From a virus (lineage: Duplodnaviria > Heunggongvirae > Uroviricota > Caudoviricetes): 33,086 nt of DNA. This document shows positions 1 to 33,086 of this stretch, piece by piece. The stretch's first letter is position 1; every line of letters starts with the position of its first letter. Made by a program: the position numbers and the translations under genes. Location: IMG/VR virus record IMGVR_UViG_2541047931_000005, positions 1 through 33,086 of that record; one strand, 5' to 3'. A model generated the notes under the pieces. It worked only from the letters and a program-made list of their open reading frames with translations. It ran no database searches and was not told the origin of the DNA.

Positions 1-129
1 GGCTGCTACACCATGTTGCCGGGCAACGAGGGAGACCGTCATCCCCGGTTCAAAGCTCTGCTGAACAATTGCGATCTTTTCCTGTGTGGTACGCCGTCTG
101 CGTTTCTCCGGCCCTAAGACATCAATCAT
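1..129 (-). CDS. insC: IS2 transposase OrfA (InsC) N-terminal part, partial (runs off window)
   Basis: Minus-strand translation from ATG at 129-127: [43 protein letters not shown], the characteristic IS2 InsC N-terminus. Confidence 0.85.
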
Positions 130-220
130 CTGTTCTCCAATGACTAGTCTAAAAACTAGTATTAAGACTATCACTTATTTAAGTGATATTGGTTGTCTGG
201 AGATTCAGGGGGCCAGTCTA
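1..220 (-). mobile_element. IS2 (IS3 family) terminal segment, partial; element continues beyond window start
   Basis: Reverse complement of 1-220 matches the remembered IS2 left end (TAGACTGGCCCCCTGAATCTCCAGACAACC...) followed by the start of the IS2 orfA reading frame; boundary at 220. Confidence 0.85.
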
Positions 221-273
221 TGTTCCATTACATCCTGCGGATGCTCTTCGAACTCTTCAAATTCTTCTTCCAT
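221..273 (-). pseudogene. 5' fragment of an ORF (MEEEFEEFEEHPQDVMEH...) interrupted by the IS2 insertion
   Basis: ATG at 273 with upstream GGTGAG; the frame runs directly into the IS2 terminal repeat at 220. Confidence 0.4.
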
Positions 274-331
274 ATCTCACCTCAAATAAGTGGTTTGCTG
301 CCTAATTTCATTTTCTGGCGACCAACACAAG

Positions 332-715
332 TCACCTCGCCGTCAGTTGTTTTGATTTCCGGTAGCCTGCCGCGTAAATGGCTACGTTTGGAAGACATAC
401 ACCAGTTTCTGGTTGCTTATGTCCAAACTCATTCGCGTACACAATGGCCGCTCGCTCCAGATTGCGTCTGTATTCTTTCTGTTGCCAGATCACGTCCTGT
501 GCCATGAACTTAATTGGCTTAGCGTCTTCTATGCGCTCAGGCGTTTCGTGAGTACCTTTAGCCTGAATCTGTGCCCGACTGAGGGTAGGGCGATGAAGTT
601 TCTCTGAACTGATAACCTCTTCACGAGCTTCAACACCCTGTGCAATGGCTTGCGCCTTTAAACGTTCACGGCGACGAGCTGCTGATGAACCTTTGAAAGC
701 TGTTCTGCGTGTCAT
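332..715 (-). CDS. N: N-like transcription antiterminator (P22 gene 24 type)
   Basis: Arginine-rich motif SAARRRERLKAQ near the N-terminus and a C-terminus (YAAGYRKSKQLTAR) resembling P22 gp24; GGAGG RBS before ATG at 715; sits just downstream of pL/nutL. Confidence 0.75.
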   Translation of the reverse strand: MTRRTAFKGSSAARRRERLKAQAIAQGVEAREEVISSEKLHRPTLSRAQIQAKGTHETPERIEDAKPIKFMAQDVIWQQKEYRRNLERAAIVYANEFGHKQPETGVCLPNVAIYAAGYRKSKQLTAR

Positions 716-830
716 GGTGACCTCCTGATGAACTTTGGTGATGTGGGCGGTAACCAGCCGCACAAGTCAGGGCCATCTTCACGTTTTACCCTTTCTCGCT
801 TGCCACATCCCAAAGTTCACTTTGGTTATC

Positions 831-845
831 GCGCTTTGTCAGCGC
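831..845 (-). promoter_or_regulatory. nutL boxB hairpin (P22 type)
   Basis: Minus-strand RNA reads GCGCUGACAAAGCGC: 5-bp stem with a GACAA loop, between pL and N. Confidence 0.6.
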
Positions 846-915
846 CGTAGATTCATATTCGAATCGTTGTATATTCACCGACCTGGTGAGTAGTGCGTCC
901 TGCTGATGTGTTTAG

Positions 916-977
916 TATCACCGCTAGTGGTATTTATGTCAACACCGCTAGAGATAATTCATCACCGCAGATGGTTA
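916..977 (-). promoter_or_regulatory. OL operator triplet (OL1 916-932, OL2 941-957, OL3 961-977) overlapping the leftward promoter pL
   Basis: Three 17-bp sites TATCACCGCTAGTGGTA, CAACACCGCTAGAGATA, ATCACCGCAGATGGTTA matching the lambda cI operator consensus. Confidence 0.8.
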
Positions 978-1126
978 TCTGTATGTTTTTTATATGAATT
1001 TATTTTTTGCAGGGGTGCATTGTTTGGTAGGTGAGAGATCTGAATTGCTATGTTTAGTGAGTTGTATCTATTAATTTTCAAATAAATACAATTGGTTATG
1101 TGTTTTTTTGGGGGGGTTAGGCAAAG

Positions 1127-1153
1127 AAAACCCGGCGCTGAGGCCGGGTTCTT
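1127..1153 (-). terminator. Hairpin terminator downstream of the ParA-like gene
   Basis: CCCGGC-GCTGAG-GCCGGG stem-loop followed by a U-rich stretch on the minus strand, immediately after the stop at 1156. Confidence 0.55.
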
Positions 1154-1155
1154 GC

Positions 1156-2199
1156 TTAAAGAATACTTGCCAGATACTTAAGTTGTCTTTGATATCGAGT
1201 AACCGACTGGTTAACTTGTAACCTTTTCCCTTCACTTACTGTATGGAAGCGACCAACTTTTAGCTGTGATATTGGTATGCTTTCAGCCCCACTAATTTGC
1301 CCGCTTGATACAAAATCATCTGTAACCACAATTGCTTTGCTAACATCTTCATCGGCAAAGAGATGACTGTATTTTTCAGCGATTTTTACAGCTCTCTCTA
1401 TGTACATTTGAGATGCGCGACCTGGTGTTGATGATTTACGGCTTTTTGAACCAGCCATTGTCATTACGATCGCTGCTACTTTTGGAGCCCCAAGCCCACC
1501 CGCACGCTCATTCCATAATACAAAATCTTTTGATTTATTTGCCAGCATTTCCATTGTGAGATGAAGTGACTCAATTGAGTGTTCATCTACGCGTACAGGG
1601 ATAATCAATGCCTCAGACGCGCACCATGCTAGGTGTGTTCCTCCAGCATAGAAAGGGCTTGTATCCATCAATAAAATTTCGCATTTTTTGTCTTTCGCTT
1701 CATCGTTCATTATTGCGCGAAGAGAATTTAATAGTGTTGATACTGCTTTTGGTTCTCCGCGAGATAGCGCTACTTGTAGTTGTTGATACATGCTTGATGG
1801 GAAAGCGAATAGCTCAGGATCACCTGGAATCGCATAACATGCCTTACCACCTTTAAAATCTGGGCAGAAATTACTTACTCGATATGAAATATCTTCTGGC
1901 TGCTCACCAAAAGCTGGACCCAGCATTTTTGGTGTCAGTGCATTAGCTATTGTTACAACCGGTTTTTCACCACGCAATAGTGTCTCCGTTAAATTACATT
2001 GCGGGCATAAGTCAGCCACTAATACGGAGTTACGTCGTGACAGCTCATAGGCGAGGTTGAATGTCATCGTGGACTTACCAACACCACCGCGCAGATTGGA
2101 AACTGCATAACTTTTGAATTTTGGCCCGCCATCTACGACGTAACCTTCCTCAACAACTTGTGCATAGCGTGCCATTACTGACTCAACTACAGTGCTCAT
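1156..2199 (-). CDS. ParA/MinD/Soj-like P-loop ATPase with a C-terminal extension, function unknown (candidate accessory or exclusion gene)
   Basis: 347-aa ORF with deviant Walker A (LRGGVGKST), A'-like (VLVADLCPQCNLT) and Walker B-like (ILLMDTSP) motifs; AGGAGG RBS 7 nt before the ATG; AT-rich compared with its flanks. Confidence 0.85.
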   Translation of the reverse strand: MSTVVESVMARYAQVVEEGYVVDGGPKFKSYAVSNLRGGVGKSTMTFNLAYELSRRNSVLVADLCPQCNLTETLLRGEKPVVTIANALTPKMLGPAFGEQPEDISYRVSNFCPDFKGGKACYAIPGDPELFAFPSSMYQQLQVALSRGEPKAVSTLLNSLRAIMNDEAKDKKCEILLMDTSPFYAGGTHLAWCASEALIIPVRVDEHSIESLHLTMEMLANKSKDFVLWNERAGGLGAPKVAAIVMTMAGSKSRKSSTPGRASQMYIERAVKIAEKYSHLFADEDVSKAIVVTDDFVSSGQISGAESIPISQLKVGRFHTVSEGKRLQVNQSVTRYQRQLKYLASIL

Positions 2200-2225
2200 A
2201 TGAATTCCTCCTTTAAATTTTGAAT

Positions 2226-2254
2226 ATTAAAGCACCACAATGATGCAGGAGCAA
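2226..2254 (-). promoter_or_regulatory. Candidate sigma70 promoter for the ParA-like gene
   Basis: Minus strand: -35 TTGCTC, 17-bp spacer, TGn-extended -10 TTTAAT, about 25 nt upstream of the ATG at 2199. Sequence only. Confidence 0.35.
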
Positions 2255-2330
2255 TAAAAAAGCGCAGGAGAATGTAAAATTAGCAGGTGAATTAAAAATG
2301 CGCAGGAGATGTGATGTTTTGCAGGTTGAC
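2242..2330. repeat. Five phased direct repeats (core GCAGGAG/GCAGGTG/GCAGGTT, 18-20 bp period) each followed by an A/T tract
   Basis: GCAGG cores start at 2245, 2265, 2283, 2302 and 2321 on the plus strand, upstream of and overlapping the candidate promoter of the ParA-like gene. Confidence 0.6.
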
Positions 2331-2422
2331 TGAACAAATGCTGATGTATACCTCGTTTGTAGATAGGTATGTTAATTGCTATATAACATGCTTATGTTAT
2401 TGATATTTATATATATTAATCA

Positions 2423-2452
2423 TAAAAAAAGGCCGCACTTCTGTGCGACCTT
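2423..2452 (-). terminator. Intrinsic terminator immediately downstream of cI
   Basis: Minus strand GGUCGCAC-AGAA-GUGCGGCC hairpin followed by U7, beginning 5 nt after the cI stop codon. Confidence 0.65.
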
Positions 2453-2455
2453 TCA

Positions 2456-3172
<717 letters not shown>

Positions 3173-3179
3173 TTAAATC

Positions 3180-3245
3180 TATCACCGCAAGGGATAAACT
3201 TCTAACACCGTGCGTGTTGACTATTTTACCTCTAGCGGTGATAAT
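3180..3245. promoter_or_regulatory. OR3-OR2-OR1 operators with divergent pRM and pR
   Basis: OR3 TATCACCGCAAGGGATA (3180-3196), OR2 TAACACCGTGCGTGTTG (3203-3219), OR1 TACCTCTAGCGGTGATA (3227-3243); pR -35 TTGACT 3217-3222 and -10 GATAAT 3240-3245. Confidence 0.85.
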
Positions 3246-3269
3246 GATTACCTGTACTAAGGAGGTTGT

Positions 3270-3470
3270 ATGGAACAACGCATAACCCTGAAAGATTATG
3301 CAATACGCTTTGGGCAAACCAAGACGGCTAAAGATCTCGGCGTATATCAAAGCGCGATTAACAAGGCCATTCATGCAGGCCGAAAGATTTTTTTAACTAT
3401 AAACGCTGATGGAAGCGTTTATGCGGAAGAAATAAAGCCCTTCCCAAGTAACAAAAAAACAGCTGCATAA
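3270..3470 (+). CDS. cro: Cro repressor
   Basis: 66-aa [57 protein letters not shown]..., lambda Cro-like; AGGAGG RBS. Confidence 0.95.
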
Positions 3471-3508
3471 GTAACACCGTTCTTTTCACAATGGACATTC
3501 GTCCTACG

Positions 3509-3523
3509 TCGCTGACAAAGCGA
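3509..3523 (+). promoter_or_regulatory. nutR boxB hairpin
   Basis: UCGCUGACAAAGCGA stem-loop with the same GACAA loop as nutL, between cro and the cII-like gene. Confidence 0.5.
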
Positions 3524-3607
3524 GCCCCAAGATATCTGACCAACTAAGGCCATATGCGTTTCAACGCATACCTTTCAACTAACTATTCACTATTGGAAAA
3601 TTAACAA

Positions 3608-3904
3608 ATGACACAAGCAAGTTACAGCAAGCCAACACAGCGAGAAATTGATCGCGCAGAAACTGATTTACTCATCAACCTGTCAACGCTTACCCAGCGC
3701 GGTCTGGCAAAGATGATTGGCTGTCATGAATCGAAGATAAGCAGAACGGACTGGAGATTTATTGCTTCGGTCTTGTGTGCTTTCGGAATGGCATCAGACA
3801 TCAGTCCGATTAGCAGGGCTTTTAAGTATGCGCTTGATGAAATCACAAAGAAAAAATCCCCGGCCGCCACCGAGGATTTTAAGCAAATTGATATGCAATT
3901 CTGA
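3608..3904 (+). CDS. cII: CII-like transcriptional activator
   Basis: 98-aa ORF at the cII position; HTH-like core (SKISR) and a C-terminus [17 protein letters not shown] resembling lambda CII (KKRPAATERSEQIQMEF). Confidence 0.8.
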
Positions 3905-3936
3905 GGTCATTACTGGATCAATCCACAGGAGTAATT

Positions 3937-4083
3937 ATGACAAAACAACTCAGTCCTTACCAGGACAAAATTCACAAACACATACTACGTGATCGCTTCC
4001 TGTCCAGCTTCAAGCAGCCTGGTCGATTCCGGGCTGAGTTGGAAAAAGTGAAGCTGATGCAGAAGGAGAAAGGTCATGAGTAA
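3937..4083 (+). CDS. Small hypothetical protein (48 aa) between cII and the replication genes
   Basis: ATG at 3937 preceded by CAGGAG; stop overlaps the start of the O-like gene; below the 60-aa cutoff of the ORF track. Confidence 0.35.
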
Positions 4084-4936
4084 TCTTGCAACCGTAACAC
4101 ATTTAAGGCCTTCACAACGGCCTGTGGAGCGTCGTGTGGCAGAAGTTGAAGATGGTTATACCCGTCTTGCAAATGCCCTGTATGAAGAGCTTATCGGCGC
4201 AGATTTAACAAAAAATCAGAGTAAGGTTGCCCACGCCATATGCCGTAAAACATACGGATACGGTAAAAAGATGGATCGCATCTCTGATAGTCAGTTAGCT
4301 CAAATTACCAGGCTGCCAAGACAGAAGGTAAACAAGGCCAAGAATGAGCTTATCGCGATGAAGGTAATCCTTCGCGAAGGCCAGCAAATCGGGCCTAACA
4401 AGAACATCGAGGAATGGCAAATCGAAGGGTGTCACTACTCTGGTGATAATGTCACTGCATTGGTGACAAAAAGTGTCACCAAAACGGTGACAGCGCTGTC
4501 ACCAAAACAGGGACACACAAAAGAAACTATTACAAAAGAAAAAAGAAATAATAAAAACACTATGTCCGAAAGTGTTCGGACGGAGTGTGAAAAATCATCT
4601 GACCGTCACGAAGAAACCGACAAGGCATTCGAGGAAATATTCTGGTGTGCAGGCATGCGGAAAGCCGGGAAAAAAAACGCAGCTTCGGCATTCAGAACAC
4701 AGTTCAGGGAATGGCGTAAAACTACCAGGGGTACGGCAAGCGAGTTTGCCACGATGCTGGCAGAAGACATCGCATGCAGGAATGGTAAGCAGTTCGGATT
4801 CGACAGGTTGTTACCATCGAGCTACTTGAACGGTCAGCGCTGGAACGACGAAAAGCCAGAAACCATTCAACCACAATCCAAACCATCATCCGCAATCACC
4901 GTATCGAAAACTGGCTACGTGTTTTTCGACAGGTGA
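4076..4936 (+). CDS. Replication initiator with a lambda O-like N-terminal domain
   Basis: N-terminal similarity to lambda O ([26 protein letters not shown]...[15 protein letters not shown]...GPNKNI); ori-like iterons lie inside the gene. Confidence 0.85.
4451..4560. other. Putative replication origin: three 18-bp imperfect-palindrome iterons at a 23-bp period, then an A/T-rich tract
   Basis: GTCACTGCATTGGTGACA (4451), GTCACCAAAACGGTGACA (4474), GTCACCAAAACAGGGACA (4497), followed by an A-rich block 4515-4560, all inside the O-like gene as in lambda ori. Confidence 0.65.
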
Positions 4937-4939
4937 ACC

Positions 4940-5047
4940 ATGAAATCAAAAATCAAATCGCTACTGGTCGCTGGTTATAACCACGGCTGGTTAAGTATTT
5001 CGTTTGTCGATTTCTGGTTTAAAAATCTCAATCTGAGGGAATCATGA
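4940..5047 (+). CDS. Possible small ORF (35 aa) between the initiator and primase-helicase genes
   Basis: ATG at 4940 four nt after the O-like stop; its stop overlaps the primase-helicase start (ATGA). No recognisable family. Confidence 0.2.
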   Translation: MKSKIKSLLVAGYNHGWLSISFVDFWFKNLNLRES

Positions 5048-6924
5048 GGCCAAGTGAACTTAGCGACCTGCTTTGGGCGCAGGTTGACAGGGTGGCTCCG
5101 CACCTGTTGCCAAATGGCAAGAAAGAGGGGCATGAGTGGGTTGCCGGTAACGTCAACGGTGACAAGGGAAACAGCCTTAAGGTCAACCTTAGCGGCAAGA
5201 AAAAATGGGCTGATTTCGCTGAGGGAGACGGCGGTGACATGCTTGATTTGTGGATGGCATGTCGTGGAATTAACCTGCATCAGGCTATGCAGGAAGCGAA
5301 AGCATTTCTCGGTATCAAGGATGACGATCACCATTTCGATGCCAGACGTGAGAAGAAATTCTCCAGACCTGATCGCAAGAAAATCGCCCGCTACGTTACC
5401 AGAACAGAATCCCATCTTGAGTACCTGCAATCGCGTGGCATATCGCCAGAAGTCGTAAAGCGCTACGAGGTTGTCAGCGGCAAGGTGTGGAATGGAGAAC
5501 GAGAACTGGATGCTCTGGTGCTTCCGTACAAACGCGATGGTGAGTTGTTGCAGGTCAAGCGAATCAGCACTGAGCGCCCGGACGGGAAGAAAGTCATTAT
5601 GGCAGAAGGTGATTGCGAACCTTGTCTGTTCGGATGGCAGGCTCTGGACGCTGGCGTGAGGGCGGTTGTGCTTTGCGAAGGCGAAATTGATTGTATGAGC
5701 TATGCGCAATACGGCATCTCGGCATTATCCGTGCCGTTTGGTGGAGGGAAAGGCGCTAAGCAACAGTGGATTGAGTTTGAGTATCACAACCTCGACAGGT
5801 TTGAGGAAATATTCATCTCGATGGACGTTGATGATGTTGGTCGTGAAGCCGCAAGGGAAATCGCAAGCCGACTCGGTGAACATCGTTGCCGTCTTGTTAC
5901 TCTGCCGTACAAAGACATCAACGAATGCCTGATGAACGGTGTTACCGATGATGAAATCTGGCAGTACATCGGCACGGCATCCTACTTCGATCCTGAAGAA
6001 CTCTACAGCGCGCGAGAGTTTTACCAGGACACTATCAACGCTTTCTACGGCAAGCAGCAGTATCTGTTTAATCCACCGTGGGAATCTCTGGCAGATAAAT
6101 TCCAGTTCCGTGAGGCCGAGTTGACGCTGGTCAATGGTGTGAACGGTCACGGAAAAACGGAGGTTGTCGGGCATATGGCACTTGAGGCAATGCGTCAGGG
6201 TGTGAAGACGTGCATCGCGTCACTTGAGCTGAAGCCAGGCATTCTCCTTAAGCGACTTACCCGTCAGGCGACGTGCTGCAAGATGCCGCCAGTGCTGGAA
6301 ATTGACTCTGCATTTAAATTTTATGACGAAAGACTTTGGGTGTTTGGCCTGACCGGAACGGCGAAAGCCGACAGGCTGATCGAAATATTCGACTACGCTC
6401 GCCGCCGATACGGCATCCAGTTATTCATCATCGACAGCCTGATGAAATGTGGCATAGGCGACGATGACTATAACGGGCAGAAGGCGTTTGTTGACTCGAT
6501 TTGCGACTTCAAAAACAAAACAAACTCCCACGTCATTCTCGTTACTCACTCGCGAAAAGGAGACAGCGAAGAAAAACCAACCGGGAAAATGGACGTAAAA
6601 GGCTCTGGAGCGATAACAGACCTGACAGACAACCTTTTTATCATCTGGCGTAACAAGGCTCGCGAGAGAGCGTTACAGAGAGTTCAGAGTGGTGAAAAGA
6701 TGTCAGAGAAGGACGAACAGCTACTGGCGTCTCCTGCATCTGTTTTGATGCTTGAAAAACAACGTAACGGCGAAGGTTGGGAAGGTGGTGTCCCGTTGTT
6801 CCTTGACGAGCAATCGCACCAGTTCCTGCAACTTGAATCAGGATCGCCATATAGCTACATCGCCAATATGCCGAAATCGGAATATGACGAGGCGTGGCGA
6901 CAGGAAAACGTGACGGAGTATTAA
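5044..6924 (+). CDS. Bifunctional DNA primase (Toprim) / DnaB-like replicative helicase
   Basis: 626 aa; Toprim-like VVLCEGEIDCMSYAQYG in the N-terminal half; Walker A GVNGHGKTE and Walker B LFIIDSL in the C-terminal half. Confidence 0.85.
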   Translation: MRPSELSDLLWAQVDRVAPHLLPNGKKEGHEWVAGNVNGDKGNSLKVNLSGKKKWADFAEGDGGDMLDLWMACRGINLHQAMQEAKAFLGIKDDDHHFDARREKKFSRPDRKKIARYVTRTESHLEYLQSRGISPEVVKRYEVVSGKVWNGERELDALVLPYKRDGELLQVKRISTERPDGKKVIMAEGDCEPCLFGWQALDAGVRAVVLCEGEIDCMSYAQYGISALSVPFGGGKGAKQQWIEFEYHNLDRFEEIFISMDVDDVGREAAREIASRLGEHRCRLVTLPYKDINECLMNGVTDDEIWQYIGTASYFDPEELYSAREFYQDTINAFYGKQQYLFNPPWESLADKFQFREAELTLVNGVNGHGKTEVVGHMALEAMRQGVKTCIASLELKPGILLKRLTRQATCCKMPPVLEIDSAFKFYDERLWVFGLTGTAKADRLIEIFDYARRRYGIQLFIIDSLMKCGIGDDDYNGQKAFVDSICDFKNKTNSHVILVTHSRKGDSEEKPTGKMDVKGSGAITDLTDNLFIIWRNKARERALQRVQSGEKMSEKDEQLLASPASVLMLEKQRNGEGWEGGVPLFLDEQSHQFLQLESGSPYSYIANMPKSEYDEAWRQENVTEY

Positions 6925-7017
6925 ATGACCATCTACATCACTGAGTTAATAGCAGGCCTGCTGGTAATCGCAGGCCTTTTTATTTGGTGGAGAGTAATTG
7001 GAGGATTTAAGAAATGA
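6925..7017 (+). CDS. Possible small hydrophobic peptide (30 aa, single predicted TM helix)
   Basis: MTIYITELIAGLLVIAGLFIWWRVIGGFKK; its start abuts the helicase stop and its stop overlaps the next ATG. Confidence 0.3.
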   Translation: MTIYITELIAGLLVIAGLFIWWRVIGGFKK

Positions 7018-7229
7018 GTACGATAGCTGAGCTTGTCAGGGCTAATTTTCGTGAAGAGTTGGTGCGTTGGTATCGGTATCGTTCATCGTCAAGTTTGCCG
7101 CTTGATGAGTTGTATGAGCATTCACCAGCCGCACGACGCTATCCGCGTGACCGTGTTCTTCGGCGGTTGTTCAGACTCAACAATGAGTTTCAGCGCAACA
7201 GAATTATCCGGAGTCTGGATTTAAAGTGA
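7014..7229 (+). CDS. Hypothetical arginine-rich protein (71 aa), nin-region
   Basis: ORF with GGAGG RBS and tight coupling to neighbours; no family recognised. Confidence 0.5.
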   Translation: MSTIAELVRANFREELVRWYRYRSSSSLPLDELYEHSPAARRYPRDRVLRRLFRLNNEFQRNRIIRSLDLK

Positions 7230-7233
7230 AGGA

Positions 7234-7476
7234 GTGAGCATGAGCGACCTATCATTAACCCAGCCAAAGCTAAAAGAATGTCCGTTTTGCGGCGGTAATG
7301 CTCGTCTGTGGGTTGAGGCCGGAATAAATATTGATGTGTGGGGCTATGCAGAATGTGACCTCTGTGAAGCCAGGGGGGCATGGGCACCATCAGTTGCTGC
7401 GGCGGCTGAAAAATGGAACCGGAGAGCAGGAGATGAAGCAAACCTTTCTGCTTCGCAACGAAGCAATCAGAAATAA
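7234..7476 (+). CDS. Lar-family restriction-alleviation-like zinc-ribbon protein
   Basis: 80 aa with CPFCGG...ECDLCEARG...AAEKWNRR, the double CxxC arrangement and WNRR tail recalled for Lar-family proteins. Confidence 0.55.
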   Translation: MSMSDLSLTQPKLKECPFCGGNARLWVEAGINIDVWGYAECDLCEARGAWAPSVAAAAEKWNRRAGDEANLSASQRSNQK

Positions 7477-9131: not shown

Positions 9132-9173
9132 CAGCATGATTGCCACGGATGGCAACATATTAACGGCATGATA

Positions 9174-24246: not shown

Positions 24247-26084
24247 TGAAAGTAACTGCAAACGGTAAGACATTTACCTTTCCTGATGGTACGAGCACCG
24301 AAGATATTGGCACCGCCATTGATGAGTATTTTGCTGGTCAGGCTGTTCAGCAACAAACAGTTAATCAGGCCAATAATGCACCAACACGGGAAGAACCATC
24401 ATTGATGCAACAAGCTGGCGATTGGCTCACTGGTGGTCAAAGTGCAGAGCAAATTGCAGAACAGGCTGGTCGTGGTCTGGTAAACATACCATTTGACGTA
24501 TTGCAGGGTGGCGCAAGTCTGATTAATGCAATCAGTCAGGGGCTTGGTGGACCCAAGGTTTTGGATGATGTTTATCGTCCAGTAGACAGACCGACAGACC
24601 CCTACGCACAAGCCGGTGAAACAATTGGTGGGTATTTAGTTCCAGGAGTTGGAACGGCAGGAAGCATGGCTATTGGATCACTGGCAGAGGCCGCAAATCA
24701 GAAAGGCGATTTCGCACAAAATGCAGCTAAAAATGCCGGAGTTAACCTTGCCGCTCAGGGTGTTCTTTCCGCCGCAGCAAAGGGAATAGGGCGTGGAATA
24801 ACGGCTATAAAAGGTGATATTGCGCCAGAAGTGGCGAAGAAAATTGCCACATCAGAATCGATGGGCGTGACACCAATGACATCTGATGTTATCCCGCCGA
24901 AAAATGCTTTCACTCGCGGCCTTACTCAGGATGCCGAGGGGGCTTTGCTCGGGACAGGCTCAAAGCGAGCGGAGCAATATGCAACGCGTAGTAAGCTGGT
25001 AAGTAATTATTTTGACCGTTTTGGTGAGTACAACCCTGATGATGTGGTGAAATCTCTGACCACCACGTTAAGGGGGAGGAAGGATGCCGCTGGCGCTGTT
25101 ATCAATGACGTCACCAATAAAATGGGTAATGCCGCAGTTGATACCACAAATACCATGAATGCTCTGAATACAGCGATCGCAAGACAGGAACGACTTGGGA
25201 CGTCTGCCAATCAAAGCCTGCTTACATCCTTGCGTAACCTACGTGAAGAATTAGCAAACCCTGCAACTGATTTGGATGTTACGTTTGATCTCTTGCGTCA
25301 GCACAGAACAGCATTTAGATCTAATGTTCAGGGAGATGCTATGGTCTTCCCCAACCAGGCAAAAGCAGCTACCAATATGGTAGAGAATGCAATGTCAAAA
25401 GACCTTCGTAACGCAGTTGCTAAAAACCTCGGTGCATCAGACGCAGCAAAATACCTTAAAGCAAATTCCGATTATGCAAACGTTTATAATAAGGTGCTTA
25501 ATAAAAACATTGCTAACAAACTCAACAAGGCAAGCAGTGAAGCCAGTCCTGAACTTATAAATACCGTTGTATTAAGCAGAAAACCATCTGACGTGAAACG
25601 AATCTGGAGCGCACTGGATGATAAAGGGAAAGATGCTATGCGTGCAGCTTACGTCAGCAAAATAGCGGAAAAGGCCGGTGACTCTCCAGCCAAGTTCATC
25701 ACTGAAGTTAATAAGCTGAAATCTCAGTCAGGCGGTGAAATTTACAACACTATTTTTTCTGGAAAGCACATGAAAGAACTTGATGCTCTTCATGAAGTTC
25801 TGCAGCAAACAGCAAGGTCAGACACCGCAAATGTAGTAACTCAGACGGGGCAATCGCAAGCCAACAGGATAAGGACGATTGGCGCAACTGCGACTCTTGG
25901 CGTATCAATGGGGCTTGAGGCTGGTTTCGGTGCAATGATGCGCTTGTATGAGTCCAAAGCAGCAAGGAATGCGCTCTTACGTCTGGCAAACACCAAAGCA
26001 GGAACACCAGCCTATGAAAGAGCGTTGAGTAACGCTGCAAATGCCATCAGGCCGCTGCTTGCTACTGAGGCAACACAGCAGTAA
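24243..26084 (+). CDS. Ejection protein (P22 gp16-like)
   Basis: 613 aa, canonical position; last gene of the rightward virion block before the accessory region. Confidence 0.8.
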
Positions 26085-26108
26085 CGTATGGGGAATTGGA
26101 TTCAATCG

Positions 26109-26498
26109 TTAACATTTTCTTTTTACTTTTCCAACAAAAGCTTTGGTTGAATCCATATTCCCATAACCAGAAATGGTTTTTGACATTAAAACTGTTCCAG
26201 TAGGATGTATTACCCATGAGTCGATAACGCGTTGAGTTTCGCCATTCGCGCCGATTCCTATGATGGAGTTTTTAGACAATGCTTTGTAAGCCATGCCGCC
26301 CGCATCTGTCCCAGAATATGTGATGCTGGCATCTTCACCGCTTGTCTTAATGATGAATGTTCCACTAAAACCATCTTCTTCCGGATGGAAATTATTTCGT
26401 TCTGAATAGCTTATTCCGCGCATATCTCCAACGACCCAGCACTCTGCTGTAGCCCCAAAAGATATGAATAAGAACATAGCAGCAAGAAATTGCTTCAC
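26109..26498 (-). CDS. Small secreted (Sec signal peptide) protein of unknown function
   Basis: GTG start at 26498 preceded by AAGGAG; N-terminus KQFLAAMFLFISFGATA then ECWVV... (predicted cleavage after ATA); about 110-aa mature protein with Cys near both ends. Confidence 0.55.
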   Translation of the reverse strand: MKQFLAAMFLFISFGATAECWVVGDMRGISYSERNNFHPEEDGFSGTFIIKTSGEDASITYSGTDAGGMAYKALSKNSIIGIGANGETQRVIDSWVIHPTGTVLMSKTISGYGNMDSTKAFVGKVKRKC

Positions 26499-26528
26499 AC
26501 CAAGCTCCTTAGTTTTGAGCAGGATACC

Positions 26529-26894
26529 ATGAAAAAAGTTAACATTGGAAACGTACCAAAGATGCTCGTTCCGCTCTTTGAGAGCGGTACAATTGTGTTT
26601 TGTAGAGACTTTCCAGAATGGCAACGCCTGCATCAAAAACTTGGCGTTGACGTGCATGACTCGGACGCCAACGGAGCGTCTCATACAATGAGCAGCGAGA
26701 ATGGTGTTTTGCATGTGATAGGCGTGTTCAATGGCAAACTATCTACTATTGCCCATGAGTGCGCTCACATGGCATTCGATATCTGCTCAAGGGTCGGTGT
26801 TGATGTTGAACCAGGAAGAGCCAATGAGACTTACTGCTACTTAATGAGCAGGCTTGTTGAGTTCTGCGAGCGACATATCAAAAAGCCGGAGTGA
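26529..26894 (+). CDS. HExxH-motif protein (putative zinc-metallopeptidase-like), unknown family
   Basis: 121 aa from ATG 26529; HECAH at 26754-26768; divergently arranged with the secreted-protein gene. Confidence 0.6.
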   Translation: MKKVNIGNVPKMLVPLFESGTIVFCRDFPEWQRLHQKLGVDVHDSDANGASHTMSSENGVLHVIGVFNGKLSTIAHECAHMAFDICSRVGVDVEPGRANETYCYLMSRLVEFCERHIKKPE

Positions 26895-26901
26895 CCCGGC
26901 T
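26879..26901 (-). terminator. Hairpin terminator for the small minus-strand gene (overlaps the HExxH gene 3' end)
   Basis: Minus strand AGCCGG-GUCACU-CCGGCU followed by UUUUU. Confidence 0.5.
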
Positions 26902-26907
26902 TGAGTA

Positions 26908-27087
26908 TTACTTTTTGCTGTCTGGAGTTCGCTTATCCAATACCCAGCCATGACCTGGCTTTGTTGTTGGTGGAAGCCTTTCGTTGTCCTTGACGGTTGC
27001 AAAATTGTCTTTCTTACCGCCGCGTGGGCCAACTTCTTGGTATATTCCGCCGTTTTTTCCTGTGTTTTCACCTGGTTTTTTCGCCAT
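26908..27087 (-). CDS. Small basic glycine-rich protein (59 aa), unknown function
   Basis: MAKKPGENTGKNGGIYQEVGPRGGKKDNFATVKDNERLPPTTKPGHGWVLDKRTPDSKK; ATG at 27087 with GAGG RBS 6 nt upstream. Confidence 0.5.
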   Translation of the reverse strand: MAKKPGENTGKNGGIYQEVGPRGGKKDNFATVKDNERLPPTTKPGHGWVLDKRTPDSKK

Positions 27088-27177
27088 GATATACCTCAAC
27101 ATATACCCGTTATTGGGCGATTAAATATTGATCTCATTTTATAAGTAGTCAATATGGCCCAGGTAAATGCAAAAATT

Positions 27178-27203
27178 AACCCACCGTCAGGTGGGTTTTT
27201 TTA
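27178..27203. terminator. Hairpin with flanking A/T tracts (possible bidirectional terminator)
   Basis: AACCCACC-GTCAG-GTGGGTT followed by T7 on the plus strand and preceded by an A-tract. Confidence 0.5.
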
Positions 27204-27234
27204 TCTTCTCTACTTTAAAGATTAAGGAAATACC

Positions 27235-27420
27235 ATGACCATAGAAGAACGTCTGAACAACATTGAGTTGAATCAAACCCTGCTTGACCAGCGACTTTCA
27301 GATCTTGAGCTTAAAGATCTAGATGTGCAAATATCAGAAGCAGAAGCCAAGCTCTCCAGCTTAAACCACCGCAGGAAGCAAATCCGCGACAGAATTACTC
27401 GTGGACGCGGAGGCTGTTAA
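27235..27420 (+). CDS. Small coiled-coil protein (61 aa)
   Basis: MTIEERLNNIELNQTLLDQRLSDLELKDLDVQISEAEAKLSSLNHRRKQIRDRITRGRGGC; AAGGA RBS; heptad-like leucine spacing. Confidence 0.5.
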   Translation: MTIEERLNNIELNQTLLDQRLSDLELKDLDVQISEAEAKLSSLNHRRKQIRDRITRGRGGC

Positions 27421-27497
27421 GGTGTGATGGTAATCCTTGCTCACTAAATTTAAGGATGCGAATCTTTCCGGCCATAGGAGTAATCATGATTTACCCA

Positions 27498-28034
27498 TCA
27501 AACAACCCACCAGTTTGCCTGATTGGATACCAGCCTTGCAGTTTTTATGGAATTAATTATGCCATGCTCAAGAGCCTTGTTAGCATCCAAAATGGTCGAG
27601 TCTGCTATCAGGGATGCCCACCTAATATGGGTTCCGATGTCGATATTGAACGTCTCAACGAAGCGATCAAGATCGTTATCGAGGCATTTCCCGTACTCTC
27701 TCAATCTGGCATGGTCGGCGGCTGGGGAGGCAAAGCACCATAATAGAGGATGTAACAGGAATCTTGATAATGGGTTTGCGAAACGTTCTGAGCCAGCCAG
27801 GAAAACGATATTAGCTATGGATTCAACATTGCTTATGTTGTGAGTTCTAACGGTAACAGGGAGTGACTTAAGAAAGTTATACGCAGTAAAGCCAGCGGCA
27901 GTTTCCCCTCCCTGACTTGATATATGGATATTTAATTCAGTTGCGCCTTGAGATAATGCGGTGAGACAGTGGTTCTGAAGTTGCCCAACAGTGGCAGTGT
28001 TAACGGGGCATAAGAAATGAATTGTGTGCAGCAT
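27498..28034 (-). CDS. ClpP-like (S14 family) serine peptidase homolog
   Basis: 178 aa; ISSQGGETAAGFTAYNFL matches the ClpP xSPGGxxxAGxxIYD region; plausible Ser (ESIAN), His (LLHPL), Asp (ADSTILDA) triad positions; start overlaps the Mnt-like stop (TAATG). Confidence 0.7.
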   Translation of the reverse strand: MLHTIHFLCPVNTATVGQLQNHCLTALSQGATELNIHISSQGGETAAGFTAYNFLKSLPVTVRTHNISNVESIANIVFLAGSERFANPLSRFLLHPLLWCFASPAADHARLREYGKCLDNDLDRFVETFNIDIGTHIRWASLIADSTILDANKALEHGIINSIKTARLVSNQANWWVV

Positions 28035-28288
28035 TATTTATCATCCTTGCCATAAATCTTTTTAAGTGTCTCAAACACAACGGCCTTGAACTGCTCTGCT
28101 TGCTGATCAGCCAAGCGTTCAGCTTCGTCTCGATAGCCTGCAATCGGTGATGGCTTTGAGAGAGCATCCTGAACGATTTGTAATAACTCAGAGTTCATTG
28201 ACCTTCCGTTAGCCTCTGCTCTTAATTTCAATTTTTCTCTTACTTCCAAAGGCATACGGAAGTTAAAGTGCGGATCGTTTCTAGCCAT
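28034..28288 (-). CDS. mnt: Mnt-like ribbon-helix-helix repressor
   Basis: 84 aa; MARNDPHFNFRMPLEVREKLKLRAEANGRSMNSELLQIVQDALSKPSP... closely resembles P22 Mnt. Confidence 0.85.
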   Translation of the reverse strand: MARNDPHFNFRMPLEVREKLKLRAEANGRSMNSELLQIVQDALSKPSPIAGYRDEAERLADQQAEQFKAVVFETLKKIYGKDDK

Positions 28289-28311
28289 GCCATCACCCCA
28301 AGTTAGTATCT

Positions 28312-28569
28312 CTAACTTTCGTCTTTATTGTTGCCATACATGCATTTCAACTTCTCAACATCATGTTCAAGATCTATCAATCGTGATGCTATAGTTGCAA
28401 GGTCTAGTGCTTGAATGTGTTTATTTTTTTCTGTCCACGCTTCAAGTGCCGCGACCATCTCAGCATTTAATGAACGAGAATTAGCCTCAGCCAGTTCAAT
28501 AAGACGTTCCTTTATCTCTACAGGAAGCCTCAGATTCACTTGAGGGTTTTTGTACTTACGATCAGACAT
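28312..28569 (-). CDS. Arc/Mnt-family ribbon-helix-helix protein (paralog 2)
   Basis: VNLRLPVEIKERLIELAEANSRSLNAEMVAALEAW; ATG at 28569 with AGGA 7 nt upstream (alternative GTG at 28575). Confidence 0.7.
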   Translation of the reverse strand: MSDRKYKNPQVNLRLPVEIKERLIELAEANSRSLNAEMVAALEAWTEKNKHIQALDLATIASRLIDLEHDVEKLKCMYGNNKDES

Positions 28570-28586
28570 CGGCACATCCTGAATAA

Positions 28587-28826
28587 TTATTTACCATACA
28601 TGGTCTTTAGCGTCTCAAGTAGCGCCTCTTTGAATTTATCAGCTTCTTGGTTAGCGAATCCTTCAAGTGAGCGAGAGCCATCAAGATTATCAACATGTTT
28701 TTGAAGGATAAGCACGATCTCTGAGTTCATTGATCTGCCGTTTTTATCCGCTTCTTGCTGAATGCGTTTCTTTAAATAGTCTGGAATCCTAATCCCCAAT
28801 GGACTGATATCTCTTGCACCTTTCAT
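28587..28826 (-). CDS. Arc/Mnt-family ribbon-helix-helix protein (paralog 3)
   Basis: MKGARDISPLGIRIPDYLKKRIQQEADKNGRSMNSEIVLILQKH...; ATG at 28826 with GGAGGAG RBS; N-terminus paralogous to the divergent Arc-like ORF. Confidence 0.7.
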   Translation of the reverse strand: MKGARDISPLGIRIPDYLKKRIQQEADKNGRSMNSEIVLILQKHVDNLDGSRSLEGFANQEADKFKEALLETLKTMYGK

Positions 28827-28844
28827 TTCTCCTCCTGCACGCTG

Positions 28845-28920
28845 TGCATAGCTACACAGTGTAGGCAAAAAAATTTTGACTTTAAATAAACACGGTGTAG
28901 TATTTAGTTATCACGGTGTA
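28845..28920. promoter_or_regulatory. Divergent promoter/operator region between the RHH operon and arc-ant
   Basis: Perfect inverted repeat CTACAC-A-GTGTAG (28850-28862) plus two direct copies of CACGGTGTAG (28891-28900, 28912-28921), with TTGACT and TATTTAGTTA promoter-like elements. Confidence 0.5.
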
Positions 28921-28934
28921 GCAAGTGAGGGGAA

Positions 28935-29075
28935 ATGAAAGTTAGAGACATCGCTCCATTAGGGATTCGTATCCCGCCAGAGATTAAAGAAAAATTGAAG
29001 GAAAAGGCTAAGGAGGAGGGCAGGTCTTTAAATTCAGAAATAGTGCAGCGTCTTATTCGCAGCCTAAAAAGTTGA
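28935..29075 (+). CDS. arc: Arc-like ribbon-helix-helix repressor
   Basis: 46 aa; [46 protein letters not shown]; RBS GAGGGG; directly upstream of ant as in P22. Confidence 0.7.
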
Positions 29076-29137
29076 AGCCCCAACTGCGGGAACAGTCAGG
29101 GCTTCGGTTGTCAGTAAATCCGTGGAGAAAAACCAAC

Positions 29138-30040
29138 ATGAATAGTATAGCAATTTTAGAAGCGGTGAACACCTCTTACGTGCCATTCAACGGTCAGCAA
29201 ATTATCACCGCCATGGCTGCCGGAGTTGCATATGTTGCGATGAAGCCAATCGTTGAAAACCTCGGAATGAGCTGGTCAACGCAGCAAACAAAACTCATGA
29301 AGCAGATTAGCAAATTCAACTGTGTTCATATGAACATGGTTGCCGCTGATGGTAAGCTTCGTAAGCTACTCTGCCTTCCTTTGAAGAAGTTAAATGGATG
29401 GCTGTTCAGCATCAACCCTGAGAAAGTTCGTGCTGACATCCGCGATAAACTGATTCAGTACCAGGAAGAATGCTTTACTGTGCTGCATGACTACTGGACA
29501 AAGGGAGAGGCAGCAAATGCACGGAAGAAAACATCTGTTGATGACAGGACTCCGCTTCGTGATGCTGTAAATATGCTAGTCAGCAAAAAGCATCTAATGT
29601 ACCCAGAAGCTTATGCAATGATTCATCAGCGTTTCAATGTGGAAAGTATTGAAGAGCTTGATGCATCTCAGATACCGCAAGCCGTAGAGTACATCCACAG
29701 GGTAGTGCTTGAAGGTGAATTTATCGGCAAACAAGAGAGGAAAGTCAACGAGCTTTCTGCAAAAGAAGCAAACAGCCTTGTATGGTTATGGGATTATGCC
29801 AACCGCTCACAGGCATTATTCCGCGAATTGTATCCGGCGCTAAAACAAATTCAATCGAACTATTCAGGCAGATGTCATGACTGCGGTTATGAGTTCTCCC
29901 GTATTATCGATATGGCGAGAGATGTTTTAATCAACCATACACGAGATGTTGATATTAATGAGCCAGGCGGACCGACGAACCTTTCAGCATGGATAAGACT
30001 TAAGAATAAAGAATTACCTCCTTCAGTACATAACTACTGA
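29138..30040 (+). CDS. ant: Antirepressor Ant (P22 Ant-like)
   Basis: 300 aa from ATG 29138 ([21 protein letters not shown]...), same length and N-terminus as P22 Ant. Confidence 0.9.
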
Positions 30041-30055
30041 CAGATAACCAACGCA

Positions 30056-30083
30056 ACGACCCAGCTTCGGCTGGGTTTTTTTA
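30056..30083 (+). terminator. Intrinsic terminator after ant
   Basis: ACCCAGC-TTCG-GCTGGGT hairpin followed by T7. Confidence 0.7.
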
Positions 30084-30140
30084 TGCCCAAAATTCACCGT
30101 AGCCATGCTGCGGCGATTCCTTGTGTCTGGAGCAAATTAA

Positions 30141-33086
30141 ATGAGAGACATTACAGCCAATGTGATCGTATCGATGCCTTCGCAACTCTTCACTATGGCG
30201 CGTTCTTTTAAAGCCGTAGCCAATGGCAAAATTTATATCGGTAAAATTGACACTGACCCTGTAAATCCTGAAAACCAGATTCAGGTTTATGTGGAAAACG
30301 AAGACGGCTCTCACGTTCCTGTTTCGCAACCAATCATCATTAACGCTGCTGGATATCCTGTATATAACGGACAGATTGCCAAATTCGTAACTGTGCAAGG
30401 CCATTCTATGGCTGTTTATGATGCGTATGGTGCGCAGCAGTTCTATTTTCCGAATGTGCTGAAGTATGATCCTGATCAGTTACGGCGGCAATTAGAAGAC
30501 CCAGATGGAGCGAATAAATACCCAAAACTTCAGATAGCAAGATGGAGAGACAGTTATGATGTAAGAGGTTGGGGGGCTATTGGTGATGGTGTTCATGATG
30601 ATACATCAGCTCTATCAGAATTACTTTCTGTTGCAACAGGTGGTGAAAAGATAGATGGGCGAGGGCTTACTTTTAAAGTATCAAATCTTCCGGATGTCAG
30701 TCGATTTAAAAATGCTCGTTTTTTATTTGAGAGAATACCGGGTCAGCCTCTTTTTTATGCTTCTGAAGATTTTATCCAGGGAGAGTTATTTAAAATTACA
30801 GATACACCGTGGTACAACGCCTGGACGCAGGATAAAACGTTTGTATATGACAATGTCATCTATGCGCCTTTTATGGCTGGAGACCGCCATGGTGTAAATA
30901 ACCTCCATGTTGCATGGGTTCGCTCAGGAGATGACGGGAAGACCTGGACAACGCCGGAATGGCTTACAGATTTACATGAAAACTATCCCACAGTTAACTA
31001 TCACTGCATGAGTATGGGGGTTGTCAGAAATCGCCTTTTTGCTGTAATTGAGACGCGGACCGTGAGAGGAAATAAACTGCAGGTTGCAGAGTTGTGGGAT
31101 CGCCCAATGAGTCGCAGCCTTCGCGTTTATGGTGGTATAACGAAAGCAGCAAATCAGCAAGTCGCTTATATTCGCATTACTGATCACGGATTATTTGCTG
31201 GTGATTTTGTCAACTTCTCAAACTCTGGTGTTACAGGTGTTACCGGGAATATGACGGTGACTACTGTTATTGATAAAAATACTTTTACAGTTACGACGCA
31301 AAATACCCAGGATGTGGATCAGAATAACGAGGGTAGATACTGGAGTTTTGGTACATCATTTCACTCGTCACCATGGAGAAAAACCAGTCTTGGAACTATT
31401 CCTTCTTTTGTTGACGGAAGCACTCCTGTTACTGAGATTCACAGTTTTGCGACGATTAGCGATAACAGTTTTGCTGTTGGCTACCATAATGGTGATATTG
31501 GTCCACGCGAGCTTGGGATACTCTATTTCTCTGATGCTTTCGGTTCTCCTGGTAGCTTTGTTCGCAGACGCATACCTGCAGAATATGAGGCGAATGCATC
31601 TGAGCCATGTGTAAAATATTATGATGGCATTCTGTATCTGACGACCAGGGGGACATTAAGTACTCAACCCGGTAGTTCATTGCACAGAAGCTCTGATTTA
31701 GGTACATCATGGAATTCTCTTCGCTTCCCAAATAATGTTCATCACTCAAACCTTCCTTTTGCCAAAGTTGGCGATGAGCTGATTATTTTTGGCAGTGAGC
31801 GCGCATTTGGTGAGTGGGAAGGAGGAGAACCTGATAACCGTTATGCAGGAAATTATCCAAGAACATTTATGACCAGAGTTAACGTCAATGAGTGGAGTCT
31901 GGATAATGTAGAGTGGGTTAATGTTACTGATCAGATTTATCAGGGCGGAATAGTTAACTCTGCGGTTGGTGTTGGTTCAGTTTGTATCAAAGACAACTGG
32001 CTGTACTACATTTTCGGTGGGGAAGACTTTCTAAACCCATGGAGCATAGGGGATAACAACAGAAAATATCCTTATGTTCACGATGGTCACCCGGCTGATT
32101 TATATTGTTTCAGGGTGAAAATCAAACAGGAAGAATTTGTTTCAAGGGATTTTGTCTACGGAGCCACTCCTAACAGAACGCTTCCTACTTTGATGTCGAC
32201 GTCAGGCGTGAGGACGGTTCCTGTACCCGTTGATTTCACAGATGATGTTGCCGTCCAGTCACTGACTGTCCATGCAGGTACATCAGGACAAGTTCGCGCG
32301 GAAGTCAAACTTGAGGGTAATTACGCCATTATTGCGAAGAAAGTACCGTCTGATGATGTTACCGCTCAGAGATTAATCGTTAGCGGCGGTGAAACAACGT
32401 CTTCAGCAGATGGTGCAATGATAACGTTGCATGGTTCCAGAAGCAGTACTCCACGTCGCGCGGTATATAACGCACTCGAACATCTTTTTGAGAACGGAGA
32501 TGTTAAACCTTATCTTGATAATGTAAATGCTCTTGGTGGTCCGGGAAACAGGTTCTCGATAGTTTATCTTGGCTCCAATCCTGTGGTTACCAGTGACGGA
32601 ACATTAAAGACAGAGCCGGTCTCTCCTGACGAAGCATTGCTGGATGCCTGGGGTGACGTCAGGTATATCGCTTATAAATGGCTGAACGCTGTCGCTATAA
32701 AGGGGGAAGAAGGGGCGAGGATACATCATGGTGTAATCGCGCAGCAACTTCGTGATGTTCTTATTTCTCACGGACTCATGGAAGAAGAAAGCACAACATG
32801 CCGCTATGCCTTTCTTTGCTATGACGATTATCCCGCAGTATATGATGACGTCATTACTGGCCAAAGGGAAATGCCGCTGACTGATAATGACGGGAGCATC
32901 ATTGTTGATGAGGATGATAATCCAGTGATGGTAATGGAAGACATCATTGAGCGCGTTGAAATAACGCCAGCAGGATCTAGATGGGGGGTCAGACCTGATC
33001 TCTTATTCTATATCGAGGCGGCATGGCAGCGCAGAGAAATGGATAAGATAAAAGCTAGGTTAGACTTAATAGAAGGGAAGCACTAA
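30141..33086 (+). CDS. Tailspike: P22-type head-binding N-terminal domain fused to a sialidase-like (endosialidase-type) body and C-terminal chaperone-like domain
   Basis: N-terminal about 120 aa resemble P22 gp9 ([13 protein letters not shown]...[38 protein letters not shown]...[14 protein letters not shown]...VLKYDPDQ); two Asp-boxes SGDDGKTW (30924-30947) and SSDLGTSW (31689-31712). Confidence 0.85.

Follow-up and report, generated by a model that had tools for sequence, protein, structure and literature searches.

Module map of a P22-like Escherichia coli prophage with lambda-type immunity and lysis genes and a K1-type tailspike

The stretch of DNA analysed here (IMG/VR virus record IMGVR_UViG_2541047931_000005, positions 1 to 33,086; referred to as the window) spans about 33 kb of a Caudoviricetes prophage, from just left of the antiterminator gene N through the tailspike gene. 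It very probably represents most of a natural P22-like (Lederbergvirus-type) E. coli prophage that is specific for the K1 capsule and has modules from the lambdoid gene pool. This reading was based on the observed identities, domains and breakpoints, on the cognate cis sites, and on the fact that the sequence also occurs independently in other assemblies. A patchwork of interchangeable modules is a defining, long-described trait of lambdoid and P22-like phages.

Module make-up of the window

The map was built from six-frame open reading frames (ORFs) and comparison with annotated records. An initial annotation, made from the sequence alone, had described a mosaic with module-specific identity and had proposed alignment to reference genomes as a check. 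This was performed by local blastn and tblastn against lambda, P22, CUS-3, phiv205-1, HK97, APC_JM3.2 and IME10. Identity proved to be module-specific, and uniform divergence from a single reference was not found. By nucleotide (nt) alignment, lambda accounted for 11.1% of the window, with four blocks only of more than 200 nt and three additional short patches of 70-102 nt. The four blocks were:

875-1153: lambda block oL/pL, 91.5% nt identity
2455-3484: lambda block cI-oR-cro, 96.1% nt identity
8498-9231: lambda block Q and pR', 97.1% nt identity
9347-10715: lambda block S, R and 5' part of Rz, 95.5% nt identity

At the amino acid (aa) level, identities to lambda were 98% for cI, 95% for Cro, 100% for Q, 99% for S and 99% for R, so that the near-identity initially given for these five proteins was confirmed (95-100%); Rz reached 62%. 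P22 matched 50.9% of the window, of which only a portion of 6.3% of the window was at least 90% identical. CUS-3 matched 34.5%, including the tailspike (98.2% nt) and gp10-gp7 (90% nt). For about 30% of the window, none of lambda, P22, CUS-3 and HK97 gave an nt match. At 95% identity or more, 49% of the window matched APC_JM3.2; the window is part of a genome, so this is not a genome-wide value.

The virion genes and the tailspike were located as follows:

12391-26084, plus strand: virion block gp3, gp2, portal, scaffold, coat, gp4, gp10, gp26, gp14, gp7, gp20, gp16
30141-33086, plus strand: K1 endosialidase tailspike, 981 aa, with P22-type head-binding domain and C-terminal S74 chaperone

The late operon followed the P22 order (3-2-1-8-5-4-10-26-14-7-20-16, then tailspike), as had been claimed. 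The sizes, initially given as exactly those of P22, were nearly equal (window/P22, in aa: gp3 162/162, gp2 499/499, portal 721/725, scaffold 303/303, coat 431/430, gp4 166/166, gp10 472/472, gp26 233/233, gp14 151/151, gp7 230/229, gp20 488/471, gp16 613/609), with gp20 as the largest departure. Pfam domains included P22_portal, P22_CoatProtein, P22_Tail-4, GP3_package, Inj_translocase and Head_binding; the P22_gp7 and Phage_P22_gp16 assignments were precomputed on identical proteins. Compared to P22, the virion block was 76-78% identical at the nt level and its proteins mostly 73-93% (gp4, gp26 and gp20 lower, 49-60%), whereas 11839-23316 was 95-96% identical (nt) to APC_JM3.2 and IME10. gp3 was 100% identical (aa) to IME10 and only 82% to APC_JM3.2 and P22. 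gp20 and gp16 were patchworks.

The tailspike was 99% identical (aa) to CUS-3 SiaK1 and contained six Pfam domains (Head_binding, End_N_terminal, End_beta_propel with E 5e-233, End_beta_barrel, End_tail_spike and Peptidase_S74), in agreement with the sialidase-like, K1-type body of the initial annotation. The CUS-3 record annotates endosialidase activity as shown by direct assay. From this likeness, the tailspike would be expected to cleave alpha-2,8 polysialic acid. The exact 981-aa protein was also present in 140 blocks of public assemblies. It was identical in two further prophages (L030 and L032), whose right end adjoins torT-torR-torCA-like genes (identified by domains). Since the identical tailspike lies beside different host genes, it travels on prophages with at least two to three integration sites.

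Junctions in the nin region, in the pR' region and after the lysis cassette, as initially annotated, were real. They constituted a minority of all junctions; further ones were located inside O, ninB and Rz, at gp4/gp10 and gp7/gp20, within gp16 and at several places in immI.

A recent recombinant of three parents (lambda, P22 and CUS-3 or very close kin, with the junctions as recent crossovers) was considered. Segments of 95-98% nt identity to lambda (cI-cro, Q, S-R), the CUS-3 tailspike and a 97% P22 patch at 26496-27201 would fit it. Against it, the virion block is much closer to IME10 and APC_JM3.2 than to P22, cI-cro-nutR-cII is contiguous with HK97 (97%), N-nutL-pL also matches HK97 (N at 91% aa), the CUS-3 procapsid genes are unrelated at the nt level (coat 25% aa), and nearly a third of the window lacks an nt match to the three phages and HK97. 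Such an origin is very improbable. Lambda, P22 and CUS-3 are handy yardsticks for the natural prophage mosaic and not its parents, because much closer relatives (IME10, APC_JM3.2, phiv205-1 and E. coli prophages) exist for nearly every segment. Published P22-like phages are likewise mosaics, in which Q genes can be identical to lambda's and the 'ant moron' varies (PMC2629481), and conserved procapsid clusters occur in them together with variable ejection proteins, tailspikes, cI-N and ant regions (PMC2629481, PMC8585504, PMC10461980).

Regulatory, replication and lysis modules

For the early and late control regions, the following features were assigned:

332-715, minus strand: N, 127 aa, HK97/H-19B type within the P22-N Pfam family
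831-845, minus strand: nutL boxB hairpin GCGCUGACAAAGCGC (= GCGCTGACAAAGCGC), on the pL transcript
914-976, minus strand: pL with OL1 (916-932), OL2 (940-956) and OL3 (960-976), by alignment to lambda and HK97
2456-3169, minus strand: cI repressor, 237 aa, lambda immunity type
3180-3243, plus strand: OR3 (3180-3196), OR2 (3203-3219), OR1 (3227-3243) and pR (pR by promoter scan)
3270-3470, plus strand: Cro, 66 aa, lambda type
3509-3523, plus strand: nutR boxB hairpin UCGCUGACAAAGCGA (= TCGCTGACAAAGCGA), on the pR transcript
3608-4083, plus strand: cII, 98 aa, and a DUF2740 gene of 48 aa
4076-6924, plus strand: O-like initiator (286 aa) and Toprim/DnaB-like primase-helicase (626 aa)
7014-8511, plus strand: nin genes DUF7301, Lar-like, truncated ninB, YbcO/DUF1364-like, rusA and ninH
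8508-9131, plus strand: Q antiterminator, 207 aa, followed by lambda-type pR'/qut
9688-11075, plus strand: lysis cassette with S (107 aa), R (158 aa), Rz/Rz1 (to 10935) and a 50-aa ORF
11282-12311, plus strand: KilA-N protein (176 aa) and P22 ORF80/DUF2560 gene, between lysis and packaging genes

cI was 98% identical (aa) to lambda and 99% to HK97. None of its four residue differences from lambda was located in residues 4-70, which include the helix-turn-helix. Cro (94% aa to HK97) differed from lambda only at positions 12, 55 and 65, all outside the recognition helix. The promoter scan gave TTGACA-17-GATACT for pL. OR2 and OR3 were identical to lambda, and OR1 carried one G-to-A change that is also present in HK97. 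OL1 and OL2 carried one G-to-A change each and OL3 one other base change relative to lambda. Lambda immunity specificity is predicted from these sequences.

cII was 100% identical (aa) to HK97 and only 35% to lambda cII, and the HK97 match extended unbroken over 2460-3946 at 97% (cI, OR, cro, nutR, cII). Lambda homology was limited on the left at 875, between OL and nutL, and on the right at 3484, between the cro stop and nutR and just before the nutR boxB; HK97 homology continued through this boxB. An origin within this phage was considered for the two joins (875 and 3484) where lambda-type immunity meets non-lambda nut sites, and was rejected. Because HK97 shares the same contiguous arrangement, they were not made in this phage; as judged by this alignment, they are old, shared features.

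N matched PF25694, a Pfam model trained on P22 N, with 56 bits (cutoff 27.9). In the same scans P22 gp24 obtained 152 bits with PF25694, and lambda N was assigned to PF11438 instead. N was 91% identical (aa) to HK97 N, and the N-nutL-pL segment matched HK97 at 83% nt. With P22 gp24 it shared the arginine-rich motif and the C-terminus; identity was about 43% in a multiple alignment, and BLASTP aligned no more than the C-terminal 29 residues (69%). At the DNA level, blastn gave no match to P22 gene 24. N is not a close orthologue of that gene, HK97 N being far closer. The motif 12-AARRRER-18 aligned with the H-19B N arginine-rich motif 12-RSRRRER-18; in H-19B N, mutations at R3, S11, R15 and R18 abolish antitermination (PMC3526286).

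The nutL boxB (GCGCTGACAAAGCGC) was identical to the P22 nutL boxB, and the nutR boxB had the same GACAA loop and closing pairs. Both sites were predicted to fold as a 5-bp stem with GACAA loop. The 11-mer common to both occurred twice, compared to 0.03 occurrences expected by chance. The 'P22-type' label initially given to N and boxB therefore holds for the boxB loops and the Pfam family of N; the gene itself is of HK97/H-19B type. As judged from these alignments, the accurate label is 'HK97/H-19B-type N of the P22 N family, with P22-type boxB'.

The replication module, judged by its domains (Phage_rep_O, Toprim_2 and DnaB_C), is neither of lambda nor of P22 type. The O gene changed partner at about 4552, from where 96.5% identity to APC_JM3.2 extended through the 626-aa gene (primase-helicase 99% aa). 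Three 19-nt palindrome-like repeats (TGTCACC...GGTGACA) at 4450-4515, spaced 23-24 nt, were located inside the O-like gene, where lambda has its ori iterons. In sibling prophages L026, L028 and L029 (about 7124-7615), a 163-aa NUMOD4/HNH homing endonuclease gene lies between the O and primase-helicase genes; it is absent from the window (compared at 4936-5044).

Upstream of ninB, a 70-nt boundary sequence (6925-6994) is kept at 91-94% in lambda, P22 and phiv205-1. From 6960 to about 7703 (DUF7301, Lar-like gene and 5' ninB), prophages of 483 complete E. coli genomes were 98-99% identical. At 7690-7703, within the stretch 7433-7967, this O157-prophage-type DUF7301-Lar-ninB segment is fused to an HK97-type DUF1364/YbcO gene without its own start, and ninB (7433-7753) is truncated to 106 aa by the joint. 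The exact truncated NinB protein was present in 53 blocks of public assemblies; the joint therefore marks a spreading lineage.

The promoter/qut stretch after Q differed from lambda by 1 nt, and the sequence was lambda-type to 9231. At 9232-9279, a short P22/HK97-type leader and terminator replaced the lambda 6S region. The following 67 nt (9280-9346) had no match in the fetched references; lambda-type sequence resumed at 9347, with the pR' leader extending to about 9687. Lambda homology ended inside Rz at about 10715, and the Rz C-terminus with embedded Rz1 was 97-99% identical (aa) to phiv205-1. The KilA-N region was 94% identical (nt) to the Salmonella P22-like phages MG40, SE1 and ST104, and ORF80 99% (aa) to P22 ORF80.

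Accessory slots

The initial annotation had recognised two accessory slots with well-understood flanks, at the rex position and in the sieA/immI region. Conserved flanks were found for both, and both slots are already in the literature. Their features were:

about 1122-1148, minus strand: lambda-type terminator of the immunity transcript, bounding the rex slot on the left
1156-2454, minus strand: rex-slot cargo, with ParA-like gene (1156-2199), 230-nt AT-rich leader and hairpin (2427-2454)
26109-27420: sieA slot, with 129-aa protein (26109-26498, minus strand), 121-aa ORF (plus strand), P22 orf59a-like gene (minus strand) and 61-aa ORF (plus strand)
27498-30040: immI-type region, with ClpP-like protein (minus strand), three Mnt/Arc-like genes (28034-28868, minus strand), Arc, sar and Ant
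28935-29075: Arc
29070-29137, minus strand: sar antisense RNA
29138-30040: Ant

The rex slot was delimited exactly at 1153/1154 and 2455/2456 (cI stop at 2456); the lambda homology of 875-1153 ends at the rexB stop position. The interval between cI and N is a known hotspot for rexAB or bstA (PMC8585504). In the window, it contained a solitary ParA-like ATPase (347 aa; Pfam AAA_31/CbiA, Walker A RGGVGKST) with no ParB partner. The protein had no match among 50,697 phage records. Among 5,426 complete E. coli genomes, 5 carried its gene, always beside cI. A total of 997 homologues at 62-90% identity came from Enterobacterales, Pseudomonas, Chromobacterium and Cupriavidus, among other bacteria. 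The gene was within a prophage in six of the seven contexts that were read, and in three cases it was located 3' of a repressor gene (directly in the window and in Sodalis, with one small ORF between in Pseudomonas).

The hairpin at 2427-2454 (12-bp stem and T-run) is terminator-like and directly follows the cI stop. Because it separates cI from the ParA-like gene, the latter may use its own promoter in the AT-rich leader, unlike the cI-cotranscribed rexAB of lambda. PADLOC models run on eight accessory proteins gave only a P-loop-level match for the ParA-like protein and primase-like matches for the replication protein. A PDB sequence search with the ParA-like protein gave only Soj/ParA P-loop matches of about 55 residues, and a literature search found no described ParA-like prophage defence gene. 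That the cargo is an undescribed prophage-borne exclusion or defence gene is a tentative and rather doubtful proposal. The rex-slot cargo is the sole part of the window that might be new biology; all pieces of the window have close relatives elsewhere.

Other cargo was found in the same slot of closely related prophages. The prophage of E. coli strain 1190 was 98.7% identical (nt) over 2455-6994, yet carried rexA-rexB. A 301-aa protein occupied the slot in strain MLI106K1. Three other assemblies, identical at 99.2-99.8% between cI and the coat gene, contained DUF6932 and a 310-aa protein there. HK97 carries gp48/gp49 between cI and pL. The near-isogenic prophages with rexAB, with DUF6932 and the 310-aa protein, or with the 301-aa protein are a ready comparison set.

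The second slot lies in the gene 16-to-tailspike region, the 'ant moron' of P22-like phages (PMC2629481). Its flanks were exact at 26085 and 26496, and the P22 homology (97% over 26496-27201) begins precisely at the sieA start-codon position, 26496. sieA was replaced by a gene for a 129-aa protein with a signal-peptide-like N-terminus and no similarity to P22 SieA (PHROG 2651). For the proteins of the sieA slot, no function was obtained from NCBIfam or PHROGs, the PHROGs matched being of unknown function; sibling contigs had the same gene calls in this slot.

In the adjoining immI-type region, Pfam matches were Arc, Repressor_Mnt, CLP_protease, P22_AR_N and P22_AR_C. sar (95.6 bits) was the only Rfam match at gathering threshold in the window, and a tRNA scan of the window found none. 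Three Mnt/Arc-like genes of the ribbon-helix-helix class (84 aa, about 85 aa and about 79 aa) lie in tandem, compared to two in CUS-3 and one in P22; sibling contigs contained one, two or three. The ClpP-like protein (178 aa) is encoded in the same orientation 3' of the Mnt genes, and its start overlaps the first Mnt stop.

Integrity, proposed working and relation to known phages

For the origin of the window, the source scaffold and its surroundings were compared. The scaffold was located by exact-protein look-ups, and the window was 100.000% identical to it (KE702254.1, GCA_000461115.1) over 1-17753 and 24141-33086. Directly after the tailspike, 92 nt of CUS-3 sequence were found, and neuO was absent. 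Further along this scaffold, at a distance of 618 nt from the tailspike stop, an exact copy of the lambda att core (GCTTTTTTATACTAA) was located. Between the 92 nt of CUS-3 sequence and this core lie a 326-nt remnant from the 3' end of CUS-3 int and then a lambda-like P arm (210 nt, 86.7% identity); ybhB-bioABFCD come after the core. The prophage is therefore at att-lambda, with an extra lambda-type module outside the window. The layout from tailspike to att core was seen at L033 8947-9700 (same scaffold) and also at L009 18280-19000. At the left end of the window, one further feature was assigned:

1-220, minus strand: left end of IS2, with the first 43 codons of the TnpA/InsC repressor at 1-129

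This assignment was based on the NCBIfam IS2 repressor TnpA model (residues 1-43 of 121) and on the left inverted repeat, which ends at 220. IS2 interrupts a lambda orf28-like ORF (221-274) between N and ral. Immediately left of the window, the source scaffold has a gap of 1,565 N inside IS2, and the ral 3' end lies beyond the gap.

The draft scaffold and its gap could suggest an assembly chimera, in which different prophages of one draft genome were scaffolded together. An independent read-assembly contig was, however, 100% identical over 14243-33086, and its 3.5-kb overlap with the left scaffold portion (14243-17753) links the left and right halves and therefore argues against a chimera. No N runs were found in the checked parts of the window, three other assemblies shared the nin-to-coat backbone at 99.7-99.8%, and several shared the gp16-to-tailspike region. 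Misassembly was rejected on the independent contigs, and the probability left for it is negligible. The exact module combination was not found in the searched sets of 50,697 phage records and 5,426 complete E. coli genomes; it recurs in draft and read assemblies. Sibling prophages were 99.7-99.8% identical over 12.7 kb, with different slot cargo.

Several points weigh against the interpretation as a natural, K1-specific prophage. Repressor affinity may be altered by the single-base changes in OR1, OL1, OL2 and OL3. The canonical boxA CGCTCTT(T)A of lambda and P22 (CGCTCTTTA-like) is absent at nutL, exactly as in HK97; a degenerate boxA-like CGTTCTTTT precedes nutR. The window does not include the left arm (int to ral). 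By megablast, none of the 5,426 complete genomes matched at least 80% of either queried portion (1-12500 or 22000-33086). Finally, with IS2 in the pL operon just 3' of N and a truncated ninB, the prophage may be partly disabled.

The IS2 insertion in the early-left operon and the truncated ninB, fused out of frame to the next gene, would also fit a decaying, non-inducible remnant, in which the mosaic is real and the element no longer a functional unit. This is unlikely, though a good deal less so than a chimera or three recent parents. All P22 and lambda essential genes falling in the window are full-length ORFs, the truncated NinB recurs unchanged in the public assemblies mentioned above, and siblings L026 and L028 have ral-N intact without IS2. 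ninB is dispensable in lambda, which also counts against a remnant.

For the natural prophage, a working scheme can be proposed in which the regulators would act as in lambda, HK97 and P22. In the lysogen, cI would hold pL and pR off, with lambda-type cI and Cro acting on lambda-type OL and OR. Upon induction, N would load at the two GACAA boxB sites flanking the immunity cassette and allow read-through of early terminators. O and the primase-helicase would fire an origin inside O (iterons 4450-4515). Lambda Q would modify polymerase at pR'/qut, and the lysis and virion genes would be transcribed. P22-type headful machinery would package the DNA, and the endosialidase tailspike would digest the K1 capsule at adsorption; the phage would accordingly infect K1 strains. 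Ant would be controlled by Mnt, Arc and sar. Cargo in the two slots (cI-to-pL and gp16-to-tailspike) would be expressed from the prophage in the lysogen.

Every trans factor was found to adjoin or bracket its matching cis site. Such linked pairs are expected if recombinants breaking them are lost. Further linked pairs may be the periplasmic Rz part with its embedded Rz1 and the IME10-type small terminase with its procapsid genes. The CUS-3-type tailspike would bring a head-binding domain fitting the conserved gp4/gp10/gp26 tail hub.

As a finding, this matters little: it is the correct annotation of one more lambdoid/P22-like mosaic, with two slots that were already recognised. The practical value is the map, with exact slot flanks and regulatory cis/trans pairs that stay linked across junctions. 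A K1-specific prophage lineage with IME10-type head, lambda immunity and att-lambda, without neuO, may interest workers on K1 phages or prophage-borne exclusion genes.

Compared to CUS-3 (CP000711, K1-specific P22-like prophage of E. coli RS218), the window shares the tailspike, the ant-tailspike junction, the downstream 92 nt, gp10-gp26-gp14-gp7 (90% nt), two Mnt-like genes, DUF1364-rusA-ninH (96% nt), S and R. It differs in the procapsid, which is unrelated at the nt level (coat 25% aa, portal 34%), in the terminase, and in the immunity, N, Q and replication genes, and its lineage is without neuO after the tailspike. A CUS-3-like relative (L008) adjoins dsdC, whereas the source prophage is at att-lambda beside bio. 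That the window is CUS-3 itself was ruled out by the coat identity, the unrelated terminase, the absence of neuO and the att-lambda site.

With the Lederbergvirus phages IME10 (NC_019501) and APC_JM3.2 (MG197996), the packaging-to-gp7 genes (95-96% nt), Q, S and R are shared. The immunity regions, ejection-protein C-termini, immI content and tailspike bodies differ, with only the tailspike head-binding domain shared (about 72% aa). HK97 (NC_002167) resembles the window in N, the nutL context, cI, Cro, cII, nutR and DUF1364-rusA-ninH-Q (97.4% nt); it is, however, a siphovirus with unrelated virion genes, a DnaB-type replication module and different slot cargo (gp48/gp49).

Lambda is alike in cI, Cro, the operators, Q, pR'/qut, S, R and 5' Rz, and in the att core and P arm outside the window. 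It is unlike in N/nut, the rex genes, cII, O/P, most of nin, the 6S leader, the Rz C-terminus with Rz1, and all virion genes. P22 differs in c2/cro immunity, replication genes, lysozyme type, sieA and the tailspike body; it is alike in late gene order and sizes, in the immI logic (mnt, arc, sar, ant), in the nutL boxB and N family, and in Q (95% aa).

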